Of a stretch of 44,946 nt of DNA, positions 18,686 through 37,637 are shown piece after piece. The DNA lies in IMG/VR virus record IMGVR_UViG_3300037126_000087, positions 1 through 44,946 of that record, one strand, 5' to 3'. A model generated the notes under the pieces. The model searched no databases. It worked only from the letters and a program-made list of their open reading frames with translations, and was not told where the DNA came from. Each line of letters starts with the position of its first letter. The first letter of the stretch is position 1. Source of the DNA: a virus. Lineage: Duplodnaviria; Caudoviricetes. A program made the position numbers and the translations under genes.

Positions 18686-18707
18686 ACTTCCCACAGAGGT
18701 GATAGCA

Positions 18708-21296
18708 ATGGATCCACGCCAACTAGGTTGCCTCTGTGATACCTGCCCTCTCAAAAACTCCATCCCAGTATTTCCGCAGGCGCCATTCCGCTGCAAGCTA
18801 GCAATCGTTGGGGAAGCACCCGGGCCAGATGAGGAAGTCTTCGGGGACTACTTCGTAGGTCCATCCGGGGGTTTCCTCGATGACATGCTTAGGTATCTTG
18901 GGATGGACAGAAATCGGCACCACATCACCAATGCCTGCATGTGTCGGCCACGATTCAAGATGAGTCCGGAGCAATGGCGCAAAGCGATCGCGTGCTGCGA
19001 GCCACGGCTAAAAGTCGAGCTGGTGGCAACGGGTGCAAAAACGGTGTTGGCATTCGGGGGTAAGGCCCTGTATGCGCTCACCGGCCCGGTGATGAGTGAC
19101 AACACCAAAGCAGCACACAAGAAGTTGCCCTCCATATTCGCCTGGGCAGGAGCGCCACTTCCCGGTTGGAAGGGGCACTATGATGGCTTGACGGTGCTCG
19201 CCACTCTCCACCCAGCGTTCTGTCTGCGGGAGAAGGGATGGGCATACAAGCCGTCGACATACATTCACACCCAACGCGCTTGGGCACTCGCGCGCAAGCT
19301 GCTCCCAGATTGGGAATGGCCACCAATTCATACGGAGGTCAACAATGCTACGCTTCGGGCACTGCGTACCATACACAAACGCGGTGGACTCGTCGGCTCT
19401 GACGTGGAGACGCGGGGGACAAACCCTCTGCGAGATCTGTGCATGTGTATTGGCCTTGCAAATGCCGAGGTTGCGGTATGTGTACCCTGGGAATCCTATA
19501 CTGCTGGAAGGCATGGGAGTGTCCAAGGGATTGATTCATGTGCCATTGGAACCCGTATTAGGGATGAGGTCGTTGGGATTCTTGAGGATAAGTCCATACC
19601 GCTCGCTTTCCAGAACGGCCCCCACGACCTCCTTACCTTCCAGCATTTGGGCATCAAAGCGCGTGGCTACACGTGGGACACCCTCCCAGCACACACGATC
19701 GTAGCCTCGGGGCGCAGACATGATTTGGGTTGGATCATGTGTGAGGAGAGCCATGCGCCCCGCTGGAAAGAGGAAAAGCATACTGCATCCAACGAGAAAG
19801 GAGCCAAAAAGTTCAGCAAGAGGAACCCGCACCAGCTACGGGAATACTGCGCCAAAGACAGTTATGCCCCAGTATGGCTACGGGAGCCACTTGGGCAGAG
19901 ACTGGACGAGGAACACAACGGCTGGCAGCTCTACGACAGCTATCTAACGAACATGCAAGTAGCCATGAAGATGCAAACATTCGGCTTCCCAGCCAACCGG
20001 GAGCGGATGATGGAGCATCGCCGCTTACTTGGGAAGCGGAAAAGTCGTGCAAAGCAGGAGCTGCGCCTAGTGGCTAGGAAGTATTGGCCAGCGTGGGGCC
20101 GCACGTTCAATCCAGCATCCCAAGCACATCTACGCAAGCTGGTGTTCGACAAGTTGCGCGTGCGCCCGACCAAATGGAGCCAGCTCACCGAGGAGCCTTC
20201 CCTGGACAAGAGTGTGTTAGCTGAGCTCAAGACCCATGACAATCCCTTAGTCGTCGTCATGGCGCGTGGCCTCGACAGATACCGCCAGTATGCCAAATTA
20301 CGTGATACCTACTGCGATCCAATAAAGCTCATAGATTCGAGAACAGGCCGTGTCCATGTCACGTGGCGTGTTACTGGGCCGCGTACGTTCCGCTGGAGCG
20401 CCTCCCCGAACTTGATGAATATACCTTTGCCAGTCATCGACCGTAGACTGAATAGGAGAACTGGAGAAGTTGTCGAAGTAATCAGGGTGGCTGGCCTTCG
20501 AGATATGTATATCCCCCCTAGTAGGAAGGGGTGGCTTGTCAGAGGGGACTATGACCAACTCGAGATCAAAATCATTGCACTTCTATCTGGCTGCCAGCTT
20601 CTGTTGGAATGGTTCGAGCAGAAGAAAGATGTGCACAGGATGGTCGCCATGATCATCTTTCCCTACCGGAAAGACCCCGGAGAAGTCACCGGAGGCGAGC
20701 GCAACGTCACTAAGCCAGTGGAATACGGCTGGTGTTATGGGGCCGATCCCAAGACTATGCAGCAAACACTGGTCAATGACGGCTTTGCCGAAACCACACT
20801 TGCCCAGTGCATCCATTTCGATGAAGCACTCACGGAAGCCCTACACGAGATTCCAACTTGGCACGATGGATTGATCAGGACGGCCTACCGCGAGCGATAT
20901 ATTGAGGCCCCTATCAGCGGTCATCGATTGCCGATCTACCAGCGTGTGAAGCCAACCGAATGCTACAACCTCCCAGTACAGCACTCCGCGGCAGATCTCA
21001 TCAATCCAGTGGTGAAGCCCATCTCAGACGCCCTGAATTGGGAAACCGAGGGCATACTGGCGCAAGTACATGATGAGCTCGTGCTCGGGGGAGAAGATCC
21101 AGTAAAGCTGGCTAAGCTACTGGTGAAGTACATGGAGAAGGATGCCACGCTTGGGGGTAACACGGCGAAGTTCACTATTGGTCTGAAGATTGGAAAGAAT
21201 TGGGCTGATTGTGTGAGTGTAGATAGGAGCTTGCCACTCGAGAAGGGAGTGGCGAAAGCAATGAGGGAAGTGAGAAAGAAGGAGAGGAACAAGTGA
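18708..21296 (+). CDS. polA: Family A DNA polymerase with N-terminal family-4 uracil-DNA glycosylase and 3'-5' exonuclease
   Basis: UDG: CDTCPL, GEAPG..E, FVGPSG, TNACMCRP, HPA; exo: DVET, NGPHD, YCAKD; pol: PNLMNIP, DYDQLE, RNVTKPVEYGWCYG, VHDEL; GAGGTG SD. Confidence 0.95.
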   Translation: MDPRQLGCLCDTCPLKNSIPVFPQAPFRCKLAIVGEAPGPDEEVFGDYFVGPSGGFLDDMLRYLGMDRNRHHITNACMCRPRFKMSPEQWRKAIACCEPRLKVELVATGAKTVLAFGGKALYALTGPVMSDNTKAAHKKLPSIFAWAGAPLPGWKGHYDGLTVLATLHPAFCLREKGWAYKPSTYIHTQRAWALARKLLPDWEWPPIHTEVNNATLRALRTIHKRGGLVGSDVETRGTNPLRDLCMCIGLANAEVAVCVPWESYTAGRHGSVQGIDSCAIGTRIRDEVVGILEDKSIPLAFQNGPHDLLTFQHLGIKARGYTWDTLPAHTIVASGRRHDLGWIMCEESHAPRWKEEKHTASNEKGAKKFSKRNPHQLREYCAKDSYAPVWLREPLGQRLDEEHNGWQLYDSYLTNMQVAMKMQTFGFPANRERMMEHRRLLGKRKSRAKQELRLVARKYWPAWGRTFNPASQAHLRKLVFDKLRVRPTKWSQLTEEPSLDKSVLAELKTHDNPLVVVMARGLDRYRQYAKLRDTYCDPIKLIDSRTGRVHVTWRVTGPRTFRWSASPNLMNIPLPVIDRRLNRRTGEVVEVIRVAGLRDMYIPPSRKGWLVRGDYDQLEIKIIALLSGCQLLLEWFEQKKDVHRMVAMIIFPYRKDPGEVTGGERNVTKPVEYGWCYGADPKTMQQTLVNDGFAETTLAQCIHFDEALTEALHEIPTWHDGLIRTAYRERYIEAPISGHRLPIYQRVKPTECYNLPVQHSAADLINPVVKPISDALNWETEGILAQVHDELVLGGEDPVKLAKLLVKYMEKDATLGGNTAKFTIGLKIGKNWADCVSVDRSLPLEKGVAKAMREVRKKERNK

Positions 21297-22144: not shown

Positions 22145-22773
22145 AGATCATAAATGCATCATACAGGATCGAGTCCGACATCAGCGACTTGCTAACCATC
22201 ATCGAGCAAGCAGGACGTACCTGCTACAAGAGCGAGAACCGAGAGATCAACGAGAACACGGCAGCCAAATTTGTGAAGATGCTCATCGACCGTGGACATC
22301 ACTCTGTGCTCGAGCATGCATCCATGACGATCCGATTCATCGTCGATCGTGGCGTGTCACACGAAATCGTCAGGCATCGTTTGGCAAGCTACTCGCAGGA
22401 GAGCACACGATACTGTAACTATTCCAAAGAGAAGTTTGGCAGTGAGATAACAGTAATCGATCCATCAAGACATCTCGGTCATGCCGCCTATATTGATTGG
22501 TCCGAATCCGTTCAGTTCGCCGAGGCACAATACTTCTCCATGATCGACTCCGGAGCAGCGCCCCAGATGGCACGCTCGGTGCTCCCCAACAGCCTTAAGA
22601 CTGAGCTGGTCATGACAGCCAATGTCCGTGAGTGGAGACATTTTTTCTCCCTCAGAGCTGCCAGGGCTGCACACCCACAGATGCGTGAAGTCGCGTGTCC
22701 TCTATTGAGGCGCTTACGACTCAATGTGCCAGTCTTGTTTGATGATGTAGGGGATGCCGAAGCCGATCAATGA
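22141..22773 (+). CDS. thyX: FAD-dependent thymidylate synthase
   Basis: GHHSVLEH, RHRLASYSQES (RHRx7S), ARSVLP; start 22141 by ATGA coupling. Confidence 0.95.
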   Translation: MKIINASYRIESDISDLLTIIEQAGRTCYKSENREINENTAAKFVKMLIDRGHHSVLEHASMTIRFIVDRGVSHEIVRHRLASYSQESTRYCNYSKEKFGSEITVIDPSRHLGHAAYIDWSESVQFAEAQYFSMIDSGAAPQMARSVLPNSLKTELVMTANVREWRHFFSLRAARAAHPQMREVACPLLRRLRLNVPVLFDDVGDAEADQ

Positions 22774-23249
22774 GTCGCAACGGCGATAGCATATCCGAGC
22801 ACAATCCCACCAACAGCCGCGCCGGCCAGGCCCAGCGACAGAATCACGTGATCCCAGAACGGATCGGGCTCCTCGACACTATCCACGCAGCTGCTTTCTA
22901 AATCATCAATGGCAGCGTGGCAGAACGCGAGGGAATCCTCTAACTGACCGGCCAGAGCATTCATCTTTCGTTGGCAGCGGCCTGGATAGGACTCCCAGTG
23001 CTGGAGATGGTATTCCAGGACGAAGTCGGTCGGGTATGGATAGCAGGTGGCTGGGAGGTTTCCCTCCAAGGTATCTCCAGGCTGCATGGTGAACGGATCG
23101 GGGAGGTCAGGAGGCCAGGCGGGCACATTCGGAGCTTTGTCAGGTCGCTCCAGAATCTCCAGGCTCTTGTCCATCTCCAGAAGTAGCTCGTCGGCCTCCA
23201 GCATTCCAGCGGCTAACAACAGAACCAGGGGGGTTATTACGGACGTCAT
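22767..23249 (-). CDS. Lysis-cassette protein in Rz1-like position: N-terminal signal and C-terminal TM helix
   Basis: Overlaps the 3' end of the i-spanin-like gene; no lipobox Cys. Confidence 0.55.
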   Translation of the reverse strand: MTSVITPLVLLLAAGMLEADELLLEMDKSLEILERPDKAPNVPAWPPDLPDPFTMQPGDTLEGNLPATCYPYPTDFVLEYHLQHWESYPGRCQRKMNALAGQLEDSLAFCHAAIDDLESSCVDSVEEPDPFWDHVILSLGLAGAAVGGIVLGYAIAVATH

Positions 23250-23478
23250 TCCGGATCTCCTCGTTTTCTTGTAGTGCCGCTATCTGGGCCTCGGCGGCTT
23301 GGCGCTCTGAGTCCTTACGGATTGCCTCGAGTCGTGCATTCAGGTGGGCCTTCTTGGCCTCGAAAGCATCCCGCTCGGCGCGCTGTCGGTCGCTCTGTAC
23401 TTTCTTCGTATGCAGAATGGCTCCAACTCCGAACAACACGCCCAGGATGCCGGCGATCCAACCAACTACTTCACTCAC
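23140..23478 (-). CDS. i-spanin (Rz)-like protein
   Basis: N-terminal TM helix followed by coiled coil; downstream of endolysin and holin. Confidence 0.6.
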   Translation of the reverse strand: MSEVVGWIAGILGVLFGVGAILHTKKVQSDRQRAERDAFEAKKAHLNARLEAIRKDSERQAAEAQIAALQENEEIRNDVRNNPPGSVVSRWNAGGRRATSGDGQEPGDSGAT

Positions 23479-23713
23479 GCTTGGCCTCCGCGATTTTGTC
23501 CATTCCCAGGGCTCCGAACAGAGGTACGAGTACTCCGGGCACGGTGAACTTCATCAGTCCAGCCCACTGGTCAAAGGTGGCGATTGGCGCGCCTGTGCCG
23601 CCGGGAGCTTCCAGCAGCATACACACAAACCCACCAATGGCCATTACTGTGAACACGGTAATCCCGATGATGACCTTGCGGCTTTTCCATCCATCACTTG
23701 GTAGCGGATTCAT
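23471..23713 (-). CDS. Holin (2 TM helices)
   Basis: WKSRK followed by two hydrophobic helices and a charged tail; adjacent to endolysin. Confidence 0.7.
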   Translation of the reverse strand: MNPLPSDGWKSRKVIIGITVFTVMAIGGFVCMLLEAPGGTGAPIATFDQWAGLMKFTVPGVLVPLFGALGMDKIAEAKRE

Positions 23714-24276
23714 ATCGTGACTCCAATCTGCAAAAGGTTTCGGGCTCCATGCTCATATTGTAGCCGGCGAACACGCTCCCGGAAACCCCTGATGTTGAAC
23801 ATTGGACCGGGACACTGCTTGCCTGGTGTGGAAGTTGCGCCAGGACCGAGCTCGTCATGGGCCACGATCTTTAGGTGGGGCCATGTAGTGAGCAAAGCAG
23901 TCGCTAGATCCTCAGCGGCCCATAGTTGGCGATCGGGGGGCACTCGCGTCCGGAAGTCCCCCAGGAGCGCGACACCGATCCCAGACACGTTGAAGCGCTT
24001 TGCATGTGGAGAGACGTGGGTCACTGGCCATCCCTGCTGAACTTCACCGTTGGACGTGACGACGAAGGTGTACGGTAGAGATAGGCCAATCTCACTCCGG
24101 TAGAAGTTCCTCACCCCGACGATGTTGTCTGGGTACCCACGCCTTAACCACTGATCGCGTCCATTCCAACCCATCCGATGCAGCACGACGTATTCGAGAT
24201 CATTCAGGTCTCGGCTCTTCTCTTTCGCCCCGCCCGGGGTGGGGACTTCGATCAAATTTTCTACGTGCAGGGACAT
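23710..24276 (-). CDS. Endolysin, N-acetylmuramoyl-L-alanine amidase (Amidase_2, T7 lysozyme-like)
   Basis: VVLH, Y.FVV...G.V.QG, HAK..N..GIGV..LGDF, AHDEL, KQCPG; GGAGG SD before ATG 24276. Confidence 0.9.
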   Translation of the reverse strand: MSLHVENLIEVPTPGGAKEKSRDLNDLEYVVLHRMGWNGRDQWLRRGYPDNIVGVRNFYRSEIGLSLPYTFVVTSNGEVQQGWPVTHVSPHAKRFNVSGIGVALLGDFRTRVPPDRQLWAAEDLATALLTTWPHLKIVAHDELGPGATSTPGKQCPGPMFNIRGFRERVRRLQYEHGARNLLQIGVTI

Positions 24277-24490
24277 AATGAATACCTCCATCTTTCAGCA
24301 ATGCATCGAGCTTGCCATTGATCTCGATCACCATTTCGCGCAGCTCTGTCACTTCGCTCTTGGCCGCAGCCTTCCAGGGAAGCACCCAGCCGAGCATCCC
24401 AAATAGGGTGATGACCGCAATGACGGCCCCAATGGAGCCTGCAGTGACTACATACCAAGGCTTTTTCGATTTGGCAGTCATGGACTGCAC
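24200..24490 (-). CDS. Single-TM membrane protein, possible holin or antiholin
   Basis: One TM helix plus short coiled coil; immediately upstream of endolysin; GGAGG SD. Confidence 0.55.
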   Translation of the reverse strand: MQSMTAKSKKPWYVVTAGSIGAVIAVITLFGMLGWVLPWKAAAKSEVTELREMVIEINGKLDALLKDGGIHYVPARRKFDRSPHPGRGEREEPRPE

Positions 24491-24514: not shown

Positions 24515-24826
24515 TTAGGGAACGGTCACTTCAAATTGTCCAGGCGGATCATAGGTCGCGGTGAAGACCGTTTTGCCTGTTTCTGTGTTGCATGTCGCGC
24601 TGACCACAGTCCTGTCGATGCAGGGATCCATCATAGTCGCGCAGGTTCCTGGCGTCTTTCCATACTCAGTGTCGAAGTCACTGCAGGTCACGTTCTCGAC
24701 TTTGGACCAGAAATCAATGACCTGCTGATTGCTGTTGTTCACGGTCTTGGTAAACGTCTTCGGGACATTGGCTGCGATACTGCCGAGCAGTAGACCAGAA
24801 ATCAATGCGATGATTTTACCCGTCAT
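24515..24826 (-). CDS. Exported Cys-containing protein (103 aa)
   Basis: AAGGAGG SD; signal peptide MTGKIIALISGLLLGSIAA; 4 Cys in mature part. Confidence 0.75.
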   Translation of the reverse strand: MTGKIIALISGLLLGSIAANVPKTFTKTVNNSNQQVIDFWSKVENVTCSDFDTEYGKTPGTCATMMDPCIDRTVVSATCNTETGKTVFTATYDPPGQFEVTVP

Positions 24827-24839
24827 GTCAAACCCTCCT

Positions 24840-25934
24840 TTATGGTGTCCAGTAGCAAACAGCTACAGTTGCTGCCCCAGCTGACACGGATGTGAAATCG
24901 GCATTGCTCGTGATCGTCACCACGACAGTTTTGGCATCGTCATGCCAGGCTGTGCCAGATGGTTCTCTGAGATCACACCCGCTCGGATTCGTGGTGAAGA
25001 CACTAGGCGTTCCCGTACTGTATCGATCTACATCCGTGCCATCACCTATCTGTATAAATGCAGATGTATCACCGGTAAAACCCGTCAAGCTGTGCAGGAT
25101 CGCGCGCTGCACAACCGCACCGTCCGGGATGCCTTCATCTAGTACGAATGTACCTGATGCACCACCGCTGTCCATGAAGTCCGCGTAGGATATGGTTTGG
25201 TTGATGCAACCGAAACCCCCACCATCACCGCCTAGGGCGAGGCGGTTCCATTGAAGAAGGCTGTACTGTGTATTATCAACTGATACATCACCGGAAGAGA
25301 ACACAGCCACTCCAAGGTCCACGTGCTCGGTCAATCCGTGGTTCTTAAAATAGTTAGGTACATCAGTGATAACCATAAGCCTGTCATGTGCCGCTGGGAT
25401 GGCGATGATATATTGATTGCTCGGGTTAATGTATACGTATGCATGCACTATGTCATCAGTTGCGGTGATACTGATACCATTATGCGATCCAACTTGTAGC
25501 TGATTATCTACGTATGTGTAGGTACCATCCAACTCCACATTCCCAGTAAAATGGGAACAGTTCGCTCCACAAGAATGACTCGATGCTCCGGCCGCTCCGA
25601 AAGTCATCTTGCCGTCCGGGTTCGTAAATGACGAAGCCCGCATCGCAATCACATTGCCTCCGCCCTCCTTGTAAAACTCCAGCGGATCGCATGGCGACCC
25701 ATCGCAGTCTTTTTGAGTGATCCTACCTCCATCCGGTAATCCATCCGTGTCCCACTCTATGCATAGGTCAGCATCGTCGCCCCAGCACACTGGAGCATCA
25801 TCGGCATGATTGGACTGCCCAACAACGCTCTTGTCAGGGAAGCGTTCCGGATAACGGGCTTGGGTGGTGCCGATAATGGTTGCTAGTATGCAGAAACACA
25901 CCAGGAACAGAGCCAGACCTTTCCAAAGGGACAT
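24840..25934 (-). CDS. Fibre/decoration-like beta-rich protein with signal peptide (364 aa)
   Basis: MSLWKGLALFLVCFCILATIIGTTQA; G/T/D/S-rich; C-terminal IPDGAVV...F...IQIGDGTDVDRY jelly-roll-like domain. Confidence 0.7.
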   Translation of the reverse strand: MSLWKGLALFLVCFCILATIIGTTQARYPERFPDKSVVGQSNHADDAPVCWGDDADLCIEWDTDGLPDGGRITQKDCDGSPCDPLEFYKEGGGNVIAMRASSFTNPDGKMTFGAAGASSHSCGANCSHFTGNVELDGTYTYVDNQLQVGSHNGISITATDDIVHAYVYINPSNQYIIAIPAAHDRLMVITDVPNYFKNHGLTEHVDLGVAVFSSGDVSVDNTQYSLLQWNRLALGGDGGGFGCINQTISYADFMDSGGASGTFVLDEGIPDGAVVQRAILHSLTGFTGDTSAFIQIGDGTDVDRYSTGTPSVFTTNPSGCDLREPSGTAWHDDAKTVVVTITSNADFTSVSAGAATVAVCYWTP

Positions 25935-25935
25935 C

Positions 25936-26427
25936 TCAGTCCTCCGCCAGTATGTATTTCACGGTGAGCTTGTCAGTCGCCCCGGGACTTCCCCCATGAG
26001 AGCCGACACACGACAACGATTTCGCGCCTTTGATCTCCATACGCGCATCCCATTTCGTATCAGCGCTCAGTGAGCCTTCAGAACGGAAGATGCCGGATGA
26101 CTTGGCGGCGCATTCTCCCTCGATAGATGTCGAGTCACAGACGGTAAGAGTGTAATCGTTGTCATCGTCGTCCGGGCCCCCGGTACATATCAGCGAGATA
26201 ACACCGGCGTTCGCCGTGTAGTCAAACGAGATCCAGAATGTCACAGCTCCGTAGATATAGCGCCGCGTGTCGACCTCGAACGTGCGCGTGGCAGCGGCAC
26301 CGTTGAGTGCCACAGCATCCAACCCCACGCCCTCATGGTAGCCAAGGGACTCATTCGGTCCTGCAGAAGCGTTGTAGACAACGGCGCAGAGCGCCAGGAG
26401 GATCATACCGAACAGAAAGTTCTTCAT
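25936..26427 (-). CDS. Exported beta-sandwich-like protein (163 aa)
   Basis: Signal peptide MKNFLFGMILLALCAVVYNASA (A-S-A site); 4 Cys in mature part. Confidence 0.75.
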   Translation of the reverse strand: MKNFLFGMILLALCAVVYNASAGPNESLGYHEGVGLDAVALNGAAATRTFEVDTRRYIYGAVTFWISFDYTANAGVISLICTGGPDDDDNDYTLTVCDSTSIEGECAAKSSGIFRSEGSLSADTKWDARMEIKGAKSLSCVGSHGGSPGATDKLTVKYILAED

Positions 26428-34850: not shown

Positions 34851-35396
34851 TCAGGGTCTCCTCCACTCAGCTGAGAAGTTGGCATGTACCATGGTGAGGT
34901 TCACTGCACCGGATAGACTACGAGCGAATAGTTCCAGAGCATCTCCGGCATTTACCCGGATTGGCCCACCAAGACAGCATGAACCTCGGTCCCCGGTCCC
35001 CCCAGACGAGACGAAGTGACTACCGGTGAGCCCTACATCTTGAGCTTGCCCATCACTACGAAATACCCCAAGGTCTACTGTCCTCAAAGAAGCACTCAGA
35101 GCTATAGAGGTGAAGACGTTGATGAAGTACACACCAGGCTTTTTGATGACCAGCCGGTTGCCAGCCACATCTGGGGTGACCCCATCGCTGTCACTAGCCT
35201 CCTCGAATGTGTTGACCTTGACCCAACTAGAGCTCAGAGCGATGGCTGTGGAGCTGTCGTAGACCCAGATCCCTCCTCCGGGGGCGGACTGATTGATCTC
35301 AGTAGTGAAGCGCTCCAAGTTCTCCTGCAGGACGCGGAGTTGCTCCTCTACGGAATCCCCAGAGGCTCGTTGGAATCTGGCAACAATAGTGGACAC
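34851..35396 (-). CDS. Tail needle/knob-like protein with C1q/TNF-like domain
   Basis: N-terminal coiled coil, then RLVIKKPGVYFI...VNAGDALELF. Confidence 0.55.
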   Translation of the reverse strand: MSTIVARFQRASGDSVEEQLRVLQENLERFTTEINQSAPGGGIWVYDSSTAIALSSSWVKVNTFEEASDSDGVTPDVAGNRLVIKKPGVYFINVFTSIALSASLRTVDLGVFRSDGQAQDVGLTGSHFVSSGGTGDRGSCCLGGPIRVNAGDALELFARSLSGAVNLTMVHANFSAEWRRP

Positions 35397-36695: not shown

Positions 36696-37637
36696 TTACT
36701 TCTCGTTCTTGATTCTGGTGTTCTTGAAGACGGCGAGGAAGTTGACGACGTTGTCTGCATCAGCAGCCAAGTCAGTCGCCGAGAAGACCTGACCGGTAGT
36801 TGTTGGGGCCTCCCTGATGTATTTCAGCCAAGCCCCCAGAAGAATCACGTCGTCGGTTCCCAAAGTGCCATCTTTCGGTTGAATGGTTAGCGTCGTTGCC
36901 GAGGGTACGGCGGCCGGCAAGTCGGCAGCTGACAGGGTCAGGAGCAGTTCCTGGACCGTCTTAGCAGTCGCATCGCCAACCATAGCTGAGGACTCCCCAC
37001 CGTAGTCGGCATCGCCATCATACAGCGCGCCGTTCACGGTGTTGAATGCTTCCACGACCCAAACGACGGCATCGCCTACTGTGGCTCCCGTCTTGGCAGC
37101 CAGGAGATACAACACGACGTCAAACGCCACATCCACGTCGTGTGGCCACACGATCTGAGTGCTCACAGGGTCCGGATTGGCGTGTGCCCCCCAGCGTATC
37201 CCGCCGGACTCATCGCCGGCTGACCATCCCGGGGTCGGTCCGGCCGAGAAGTCCGCCAGAGCTGTACCATCTTGCTCCTGGAAAGCCCCGAGAGGTAGAG
37301 GGATAACACCAGCCGACGGAGTCACCGCAGCAGTAGCTGCCTGCAGAACTTGGATTTGGGCCGTCTTGTTGGCCACGCTGACATCACCCGCCTGCACGAT
37401 GGTCGGGGTCTTGGCAGCTTCTCGCAGGCTGCAGAAGAAGCTGTCTAGCTGGTAACCGAAGTCGTCGAAGGTGACCGTGTAGAGTCCAGCACTCGTGCGC
37501 GCTACGCTCCATCCAGTACCTTTTTGAGACCCACTGACGACTCCGGTGGCGCCATTGGGTCGAAAGCTTCCCTCGACGACGACTCGGTCGCGGCCGATCG
37601 AGCCGAAGCCTCGGTGAACATTCCTCATGATGCCCAT
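36696..37637 (-). CDS. Capsid decoration / minor head protein (313 aa)
   Basis: Directly after major capsid gene; SVARTSAGLYTVTF motif; beta-rich. Confidence 0.6.
   Translation of the reverse strand: MGIMRNVHRGFGSIGRDRVVVEGSFRPNGATGVVSGSQKGTGWSVARTSAGLYTVTFDDFGYQLDSFFCSLREAAKTPTIVQAGDVSVANKTAQIQVLQAATAAVTPSAGVIPLPLGAFQEQDGTALADFSAGPTPGWSAGDESGGIRWGAHANPDPVSTQIVWPHDVDVAFDVVLYLLAAKTGATVGDAVVWVVEAFNTVNGALYDGDADYGGESSAMVGDATAKTVQELLLTLSAADLPAAVPSATTLTIQPKDGTLGTDDVILLGAWLKYIREAPTTTGQVFSATDLAADADNVVNFLAVFKNTRIKNEK

Follow-up and report, generated by a model that had tools for sequence, protein, structure and literature searches.

The window analysed here is the whole of the 44,946-nucleotide virus record IMGVR_UViG_3300037126_000087 (Duplodnaviria; Caudoviricetes), which carries direct terminal repeats. 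Its late genes follow one another on the minus strand in the order nozzle-like, ejection-type, then three genes, here named A, B and C, and then a lysis cassette with an amidase. A, B and C, the subject of this analysis, occupy positions 24,515 to 26,427, between an 847-residue gene and the lysis genes. A sequence-only reading had described them as late genes whose products start with Sec signals, carry paired cysteines and might be virion appendages matured outside the cytoplasm. The coordinates of the three open reading frames and their place between the ejection-type gene and the lysis genes agree with that description, as does the hydrophobicity rule used below. The genes and their parts are:

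25936-26427, minus strand: gene A, 163 residues, predicted Sec signal (about residues 1-22) followed by a single jelly-roll beta-sandwich (open reading frame, model, fold searches)
26362-26427, minus strand: predicted signal peptide of A, ending A-S-A (sequence, hydrophobicity rule, alignment)
24840-25934, minus strand: gene B, 364 residues, predicted signal, short arm, beta-rich shaft, hypervariable middle and C-terminal jelly-roll knob
25857-25934, minus strand: predicted signal peptide of B, residues 1-26, ending T-Q-A (sequence, hydrophobicity rule)
25815-25856, minus strand: residues 27-40 of B, short arm and putative docking peptide, 93-100% identity in five close relatives
25581-25814, minus strand: residues 41-118 of B, conserved beta-rich fibre-like segment with cysteines 50, 58, 77 and 82
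25251-25580, minus strand: residues 119-228 of B, hypervariable, swappable segment and putative host-binding part, 25-42% identity in close relatives
24840-25250, minus strand: residues 229-364 of B, jelly-roll knob of virion cement/spike type with a predicted C243-C360 bond
24515-24826, minus strand: gene C, 103 residues, predicted signal (about residues 1-19) and four cysteines

Signal-like N-termini were called with our own hydrophobicity rule and with alignments, not with SignalP. Applied to the 24 late genes, the rule was positive for eight, namely A, B, C, one ejection-type protein and four lysis-cassette membrane proteins, and negative for all capsid, portal, adaptor and nozzle genes. 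In A, B and C alike, the predicted leader runs from a basic through a hydrophobic region to small residues at the predicted cleavage site, as in substrates of Sec and signal peptidase I, and by eye all three end in small residues without a lipobox. Beyond residue 28, the maximal 19-residue hydropathy is 1.17 in A, 1.02 in B and 0.58 in C, which leaves no second membrane segment in any of the three, as the sequence-only reading had held. Its counts of four, nine and four mature cysteines were likewise borne out, the cysteines after the predicted signals being residues 81, 97, 106 and 140 of A, residues 50, 58, 77, 82, 122, 126, 243, 320 and 360 of B, and residues 48, 62, 69 and 79 of C. Each gene is preceded by a purine-rich ribosome-binding site, and the starts lie close behind the upstream stops. 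Searches against Pfam, PHROGs and NCBIfam gave no above-threshold match for A, B or C, and an N-terminal tail-anchor domain (Pfam/PHROGs) was not found in any of them.

To follow leaders and cysteines through relatives, a profile search with family A was performed, which yielded 338 clusters at 50% identity; the best 150 were taken, six were dropped by length and 144 kept. The profile took in the leader and therefore favours leader-bearing matches, and the counts are not corrected for kinship. Within this scope, 133 of the 144 relatives have a signal-like end, the leaders holding their basic-hydrophobic-small-residue pattern despite sequence drift, and two were flagged as lipobox-like, one of them doubtfully. 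The hydrophobic N-termini that had been expected of homologues are thus kept, the rule also being passed by 16 of 17 close A relatives and by all ten C proteins. Cysteines C81 and C140 are both present in 113 of the 133 signal-like A relatives versus two of the 11 others; they are jointly present or jointly absent in 131 of the 133, and the number of cysteines in the mature part is even in 130 of them. The A relative of locus L014, whose start lies immediately behind the upstream stop and has a clear ribosome site, lacks a leader, and all four cysteines are replaced; as judged by sequence, this is a clean natural control for the association of leader and cysteines.

The same association recurs in the other two families. 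The best 120 of 152 hits to the B knob comprise 25 signal-like proteins and 95 without such an end; the pair C243 and C360 is complete in 22 of the 25 versus seven of the 95, and for three of these seven exceptions (L008, L017, L019) a signal-like start lies further upstream in the DNA. All ten hits of the C family have a leader and four cysteines, and the 79-residue C relatives in L020 and L021, two low-GC (guanine plus cytosine) large phages, have neither leader nor cysteine. That signal and cysteine pairs are gained and lost together in each of the three families gives good support to the proposal of export with disulfide folding outside the cytoplasm, and A, B and C are very probably exported and oxidatively folded there.

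For gene B, conservation and exchange are sharply partitioned. Outside residues 119-228 it is 83-100% identical in five close relatives, and in two loci compared, A, C, the nozzle and the amidase are 95-99% identical. A diverged block at 25256-25575 in a related strain matches the hypervariable segment. Going by sequence, this conserved-plus-swapped pattern is that of a host-binding part. The variable segment of the signal-bearing protein P0011 (B of L005/L006) is identical to that of the signal-less B of L020 at 101 of 108 residues (hand count on the alignment), so one module works in exported and cytoplasmic fibres. The near-identical segment lies at 9575-10807 of L020, a large phage with 34% GC, and at 9632-11008 of L006, a myovirus-type contig with 56% GC, in which GC falls to 0.43 across part of the gene carrying it; recent exchange and a common host surface target are likely for this pair.

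The B monomer model has a predicted local distance difference test score (pLDDT) of 74.7 and a predicted template modelling score of 0.46, with short strands in the shaft region. For the knob (residues 237-364), the four best VIA matches among 48,161 chains were all virion proteins, with Z 10.3-9.0 and 13-17% identity: Pam1 capsid chain 7eel_H (Z 10.3, root-mean-square deviation (rmsd) 9.6, 129 aligned; Foldseek E 1.5e-4), GP4 capsid chain 8h89_J (Z 9.4, rmsd 3.0, 124 aligned), R4C baseplate-tail chain 8gtc_S (Z 9.3, rmsd 2.7, 109 aligned) and KHP40 cement 7dou_4 (Z 9.0, rmsd 4.3, 108 aligned). Like B, these proteins have the jelly-roll virion cement/knob fold; unlike them, the B knob ends a fibre, follows a predicted export signal and carries the C243-C360 pair. 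A search of PDB sequences with the B profile gave no match at E 10. The suggestion that B looks like a virion protein stood for its cement-like jelly-roll C-terminus, for which the fold searches speak, and found weaker support for the fibre-like front half. The second Foldseek match of the full B model was the Bdellovibrio fibre Bd2133 (E 2.4e-4), with a low TM value of about 0.16. Bdellovibrio MAT fibres such as Bd2133 are phage-fibre-like trimers that follow a signal peptide (PMC10769870), so such fibres can be made by export; unlike B, the Bd2133-type fibres are cellular adhesins of the predator of about 1,000 residues and do not belong to a virus.

Signal-less knob relatives lie directly behind a PHROG-confirmed major head gene in six loci (L027, L028, L034, L041, L043, L048), and one such relative (P0057) is fused to a Phage_cement_2 domain. 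At 3189-3713 of L048 and 10453-11022 of L028, a signal-bearing, cysteine-poor fibre-like protein is encoded behind the signal-less knob gene that directly follows the capsid gene; exported proteins thus occur in head modules too. Three tandem B knob domains without a leader are encoded at 669-2069 of L036, a contig of a Phycisphaerae metagenome-assembled genome.

The model of A (pLDDT 84.5) is a single jelly-roll with predicted disulfides C81-C140 and C97-C106. Among its fold matches are YomS (Z 9.0, rmsd 4.5, 106 aligned), XepA (Z 8.9, rmsd 2.9, 106 aligned; level with unrelated jelly-rolls and without a Pfam match) and a 7-7-1 capsid chain. Its putative role is that of base or adaptor of the appendage. 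In seven loci, the protein encoded after a window-type A gene begins with a short Tyr-Pro or Phe-Pro arm (by eye, on a poor alignment), and other arms, with 0-7% identity, are found in relatives sharing the shaft, B proteins with the same shaft and other A types carrying different arms. This suggests, as a hypothesis only, that A loads its partner via the arm. Complex prediction with three A chains (residues 23-163) and three B fragments (residues 27-130) gave a median of 0.02 (runs 0.37, 0.02 and 0.02). The A-slot proteins of the myovirus-type loci match window A weakly (E 0.09-0.5), that of L017 at 1.6e-9. Gene C comes after B in signal-less versions as well, and its product is a putative tip cap or folding helper.

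Signal-bearing genes in the A slot, the B slot and usually the C slot lie between tail and lysis genes in the relatives. This cassette is present in podovirus-type contigs (L001, L002, L003, L010, L012, L022), in myovirus-type contigs recognized by baseplate matches (L005/L006, L008, L018, L019), in contigs whose siphovirus type was read from gene layout (L011, L015, L016, L017), and, outside these three groups, in L013. It moves from one tail type to another. The B slot is modular, with fibres in most loci, a Laminin_G_3 protein in L012 and a protein in L010 that we read as lectin-like. What is new here is the existence of signal-less, cysteine-free counterparts of A and C, a module shared by exported and cytoplasmic fibres, and one cassette portable across tail types.

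On balance, we lean slightly towards A, B and C forming an accessory spike that is exported, locked by disulfides and added to the particle at lysis. Host Sec would export the late products, which would form their disulfides outside the cytoplasm and come together as an accessory host-binding spike; this would join the finished particle only once lysis mixes the two compartments. B would be a trimer of arm, beta shaft and knob, built like the capsid spike gp52 of Pa223; A would be a jelly-roll base gripping the B arm and contacting the particle, and C would cap B or help it fold. Since the cassette moves between tail types, the contact would more likely be with the head than with the tail. A spike kept outside the cytoplasm could form disulfides, and sticky host-binding parts could be stopped from acting before release. 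The novelty would lie in this route, the folds being of known kinds.

Joining to the virion is the step to which gene context, a signal-bearing fibre in the related record G001, tandem mass spectrometry (MS/MS) annotations of unrelated proteins and the comparison with Pa223 would point. In G001 (the record of L022; 100% complete by CheckV), the only tail-anchor gene found (L022 5459-7366) starts with a signal-like 27-mer; position 2 of the tail-anchor PHROG profile begins at residue 28, exactly where the leader ends, and an S74 chaperone is present. Behind this fibre gene come A-like, B and C-slot genes.

In the cultured Cellulophaga phages phi10:1 (gp091-094, KC821618.1) and phi18:3 (gp085-087, KC821620.1), consecutive late genes encode proteins with signal-like N-termini, as in A-B-C, that are annotated 'structural protein, experimental MS/MS', and by eye none of seven other MS/MS proteins of phi18:3 has a signal-like end. 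Unlike A-B-C, these proteins have 0-3 cysteines, and their records are silent on export or late attachment. Gp49 of Burkholderia phage Bcep781 (AF543311.2), annotated 'possible tail fiber; possible signal peptide domain', is not homologous to A, B or C. The capsid spike gp52 of Pa223 consists of an arm, a triple beta-helix and a knob and is bound to the head exterior (bioRxiv 10.1101/2025.06.11.659172); judging by gene number, it occupies the same slot after the ejection genes as the cassette. Unlike the cassette, gp52 is one protein and not three, is modelled from residue 2, and the preprint text searched makes no mention of a signal.

Searches of open-access literature, judged from titles and abstract openings, yielded no description of an export-then-join route for virion proteins of tailed phages. 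For comparison, pIII of filamentous phages binds the receptor, is part of the virion and has a Sec signal and periplasmic disulfides; it is anchored in the membrane and joins the particle during extrusion through it, in a non-lytic, non-tailed virus. A word search of the Milano disulfide paper (PMC10811340) returned no mention of signal peptides or periplasm.

Several observations weigh against the joining spike. On the side of export, the signals were judged by our hydrophobicity rule rather than by SignalP, the ninth cysteine of B (C320) makes their number odd, and three cysteines, the C243 equivalent among them, are retained in the signal-less B of L020 and L021. Capsid proteins of phage 7-7-1 contain virion disulfides as well (PMC12796354), and such bonds may arise spontaneously in air (PMC13576161), so that cysteines alone are no sign of export. 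On the side of assembly, the fold matches of A are unspecific, subtilisin-type domains (Z 9.6 and 9.2) ranking ahead of YomS and XepA, and L014 has its signal-less A without a B, which weakens A as a dedicated adaptor of B. On the side of attachment, the Cellulophaga proteins are unrelated to A, B and C (no match between them by hidden Markov models at E 0.05), and their MS/MS label may reflect co-purification. The window capsid protein was matched in only one of five records with A relatives (42-44% identity), two of the misses being 52% and 79% complete; with capsids so mismatched across cassette-bearing records, no common docking site readily suggests itself. Just upstream of the cassette, L003, L005, L008 and L018 retain a fibre or tailspike without a signal, and a phage with its own fibre or tailspike need not carry the cassette on the particle. 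Because these myovirus-type and tailspike-bearing relatives keep such a gene, the cassette probably does not stand in for tail fibres. In L037 and L038, B is preceded by a gene for a lipoprotein-like product. Finally, the Bacillus prophage protein XepA, encoded in a lysis cassette, is reported to be exported during phage development and absent from particles (PMC6834076), so an exported late jelly-roll can stay off the particle.

A secreted decoy is the alternative that survives best, although we consider it rather unlikely. In this case, the exported A-B-C, a complex derived from a spike, would never join the particle but would bind the phage's own receptor in the periplasm or on the surface of the infected cell, blocking superinfection or else masking receptors on lysis debris and thereby saving progeny. 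T5 Llp, a receptor-blocking lipoprotein, is the comparison for such a role. A decoy would explain the free movement of the cassette between podo-, myo- and sipho-type contigs with different capsids and its coexistence with normal fibres, and the hypervariable middle of B fits receptor tracking equally well. The lipoprotein-like genes before B and the two lipobox-like A relatives, one of them doubtful, also fit, yet by eye A, B and C themselves lack the lipobox of the known lipoprotein type of receptor blocker (T5 Llp, Cor). A decoy would also have little need to conserve a long shaft, an arm and a cement-type knob (83-100% in close relatives). It leaves aside that the only tail-anchor fibre found in G001 bears a signal, and that two cultured phages have late proteins with signals that carry an MS/MS annotation as structural.

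It is improbable that the cassette serves lysis or the envelope in the manner of XepA/YomS, with exported or membrane-tethered jelly-rolls acting on the envelope late in infection. Like A, XepA and YomS are late jelly-roll proteins adjoining lysis genes, with Z about 9 (9.0 for YomS and 8.9 for XepA), and XepA, which is described as pentameric and cytotoxic, is encoded in a lysis cassette, exported and reported to stay off particles (PMC6834076). In L014, A directly precedes the lysis genes, and the Atlas gave a lead of 0.85 for the XepA-containing cluster. However, the cement family Bbp16 scores the same Atlas lead of 0.85, the Z values are tied with those of unrelated jelly-rolls, the window already has its own amidase and membrane lysis genes, and the swappable middle and the virion-type knob of B would be left unexplained. 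That the N-termini are mis-read starts or tethers and not functional signals, the genes encoding ordinary cytoplasmic spike parts whose disulfides form in air after lysis, is very improbable even though disulfide-rich capsids exist in tailed phages (PMC12796354, PMC13576161) and signal-less relatives exist in all three families, for the leader pattern is kept amid drift (133 of 144 A relatives, ten of ten C proteins), the cysteine pairs vanish where the leader is absent, and the window starts have ribosome-binding sites and lie close behind upstream stops.

The remainder of the late operon places the joining spike, our preferred reading, in its genomic setting. Terminase, a P22-like portal, an SU10-type capsid protein and an SU10-type adaptor were recognized by Pfam/PHROGs, and next come a 1,032-residue nozzle-like protein and large ejection-type proteins, both labels being our reading from size and position. 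The window virus is a short-tailed (podovirus-like) phage. Searches (tblastn) of 50,697 phage records with B, A, the capsid, portal and amidase proteins and two signal-less relatives gave no match; of the proteins searched, the polymerase alone matched, at below 27% identity, so the window phage has no cultured relative. Wetland metagenome is the label of the sequencing runs in which the stretch occurs. In an RNA library, contigs from a related strain cover parts of A, B and C, yet also all 30 bins, and therefore demonstrate neither expression nor timing of the three genes. As a sign of the host, the Phycisphaerae assembly mentioned above was rejected, this being the only match in one GTDB genome scan, weak, and consisting of the triple knob repeat without a cassette. 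In style, the leaders may resemble those of Myxococcota. Further features of the window are:

22767-24490, minus strand: lysis cassette with membrane proteins, amidase and an overlapping spanin-like pair (from membrane segments; the holin and spanin labels are our reading)
23710-24291: amidase of the lysis cassette (Amidase_2, E 5.8e-13)
34851-35396, minus strand: 181-residue signal-less protein just upstream of the nozzle, candidate short cytoplasmic tail fibre

The 181-residue protein bears on the earlier statement that no fibre gene is visible outside the cassette, which holds in that no fibre family was detected with Pfam/PHROGs and fails in that this signal-less protein is a short-fibre candidate. 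Its gene has weak BclA/C1q-like similarity (Pfam BclA_C E 0.092; profile match P 0.001), its position resembles that of the short tail fibre gene gp60 of Pa223, and the protein is 91-99% identical in two relatives; the window phage may thus have a cytoplasmic short fibre as well. Docking of A onto such a C1q-like fibre was considered on the basis of weak matches and dropped. A 313-residue signal-less protein without a family match, encoded after the capsid gene at 36696-37637, is probably a cytoplasmic decoration protein with an inserted domain and a candidate docking site for the cassette.

In the overlapping spanin-like pair at 22767-23478, the second gene encodes a hydrophobic N-terminus, no lipobox cysteine and a C-terminal membrane segment; a similar layout is seen again in L005, L008 and L016 and may represent an unusual spanin type. 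At 18699-21296, a family A DNA polymerase is fused to an N-terminal uracil-DNA-glycosylase-like domain, with ThyX, dCMP deaminase and Dam methylase genes nearby.

The assembly of tailed phages is regarded as wholly cytoplasmic, and structural gene sets as a rule leave out proteins that have signal peptides. We see even chances that many uncultured tailed phages use two-compartment assembly, in which cytoplasmic heads and tails are completed by a portable three-part periplasmic, disulfide-locked spike that would snap on at lysis, its jelly-roll adaptor loading interchangeable fibres or lectins via a short N-terminal arm. Were A, B and C a decoy, the system would be of a known kind and new in form only. 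If, instead, exported parts do join at lysis, virion maturation would gain an extra step dependent on the Sec and disulfide machinery of the host, and in many environmental phages the genes for receptor binding would be carrying the wrong annotation, as membrane or secreted 'hypothetical' proteins. The route would then be common, since family A alone comprises 338 clusters at 50% identity and the cassette occurs in all three tail types, and cultured phages whose records list signal-bearing structural proteins make it directly testable.

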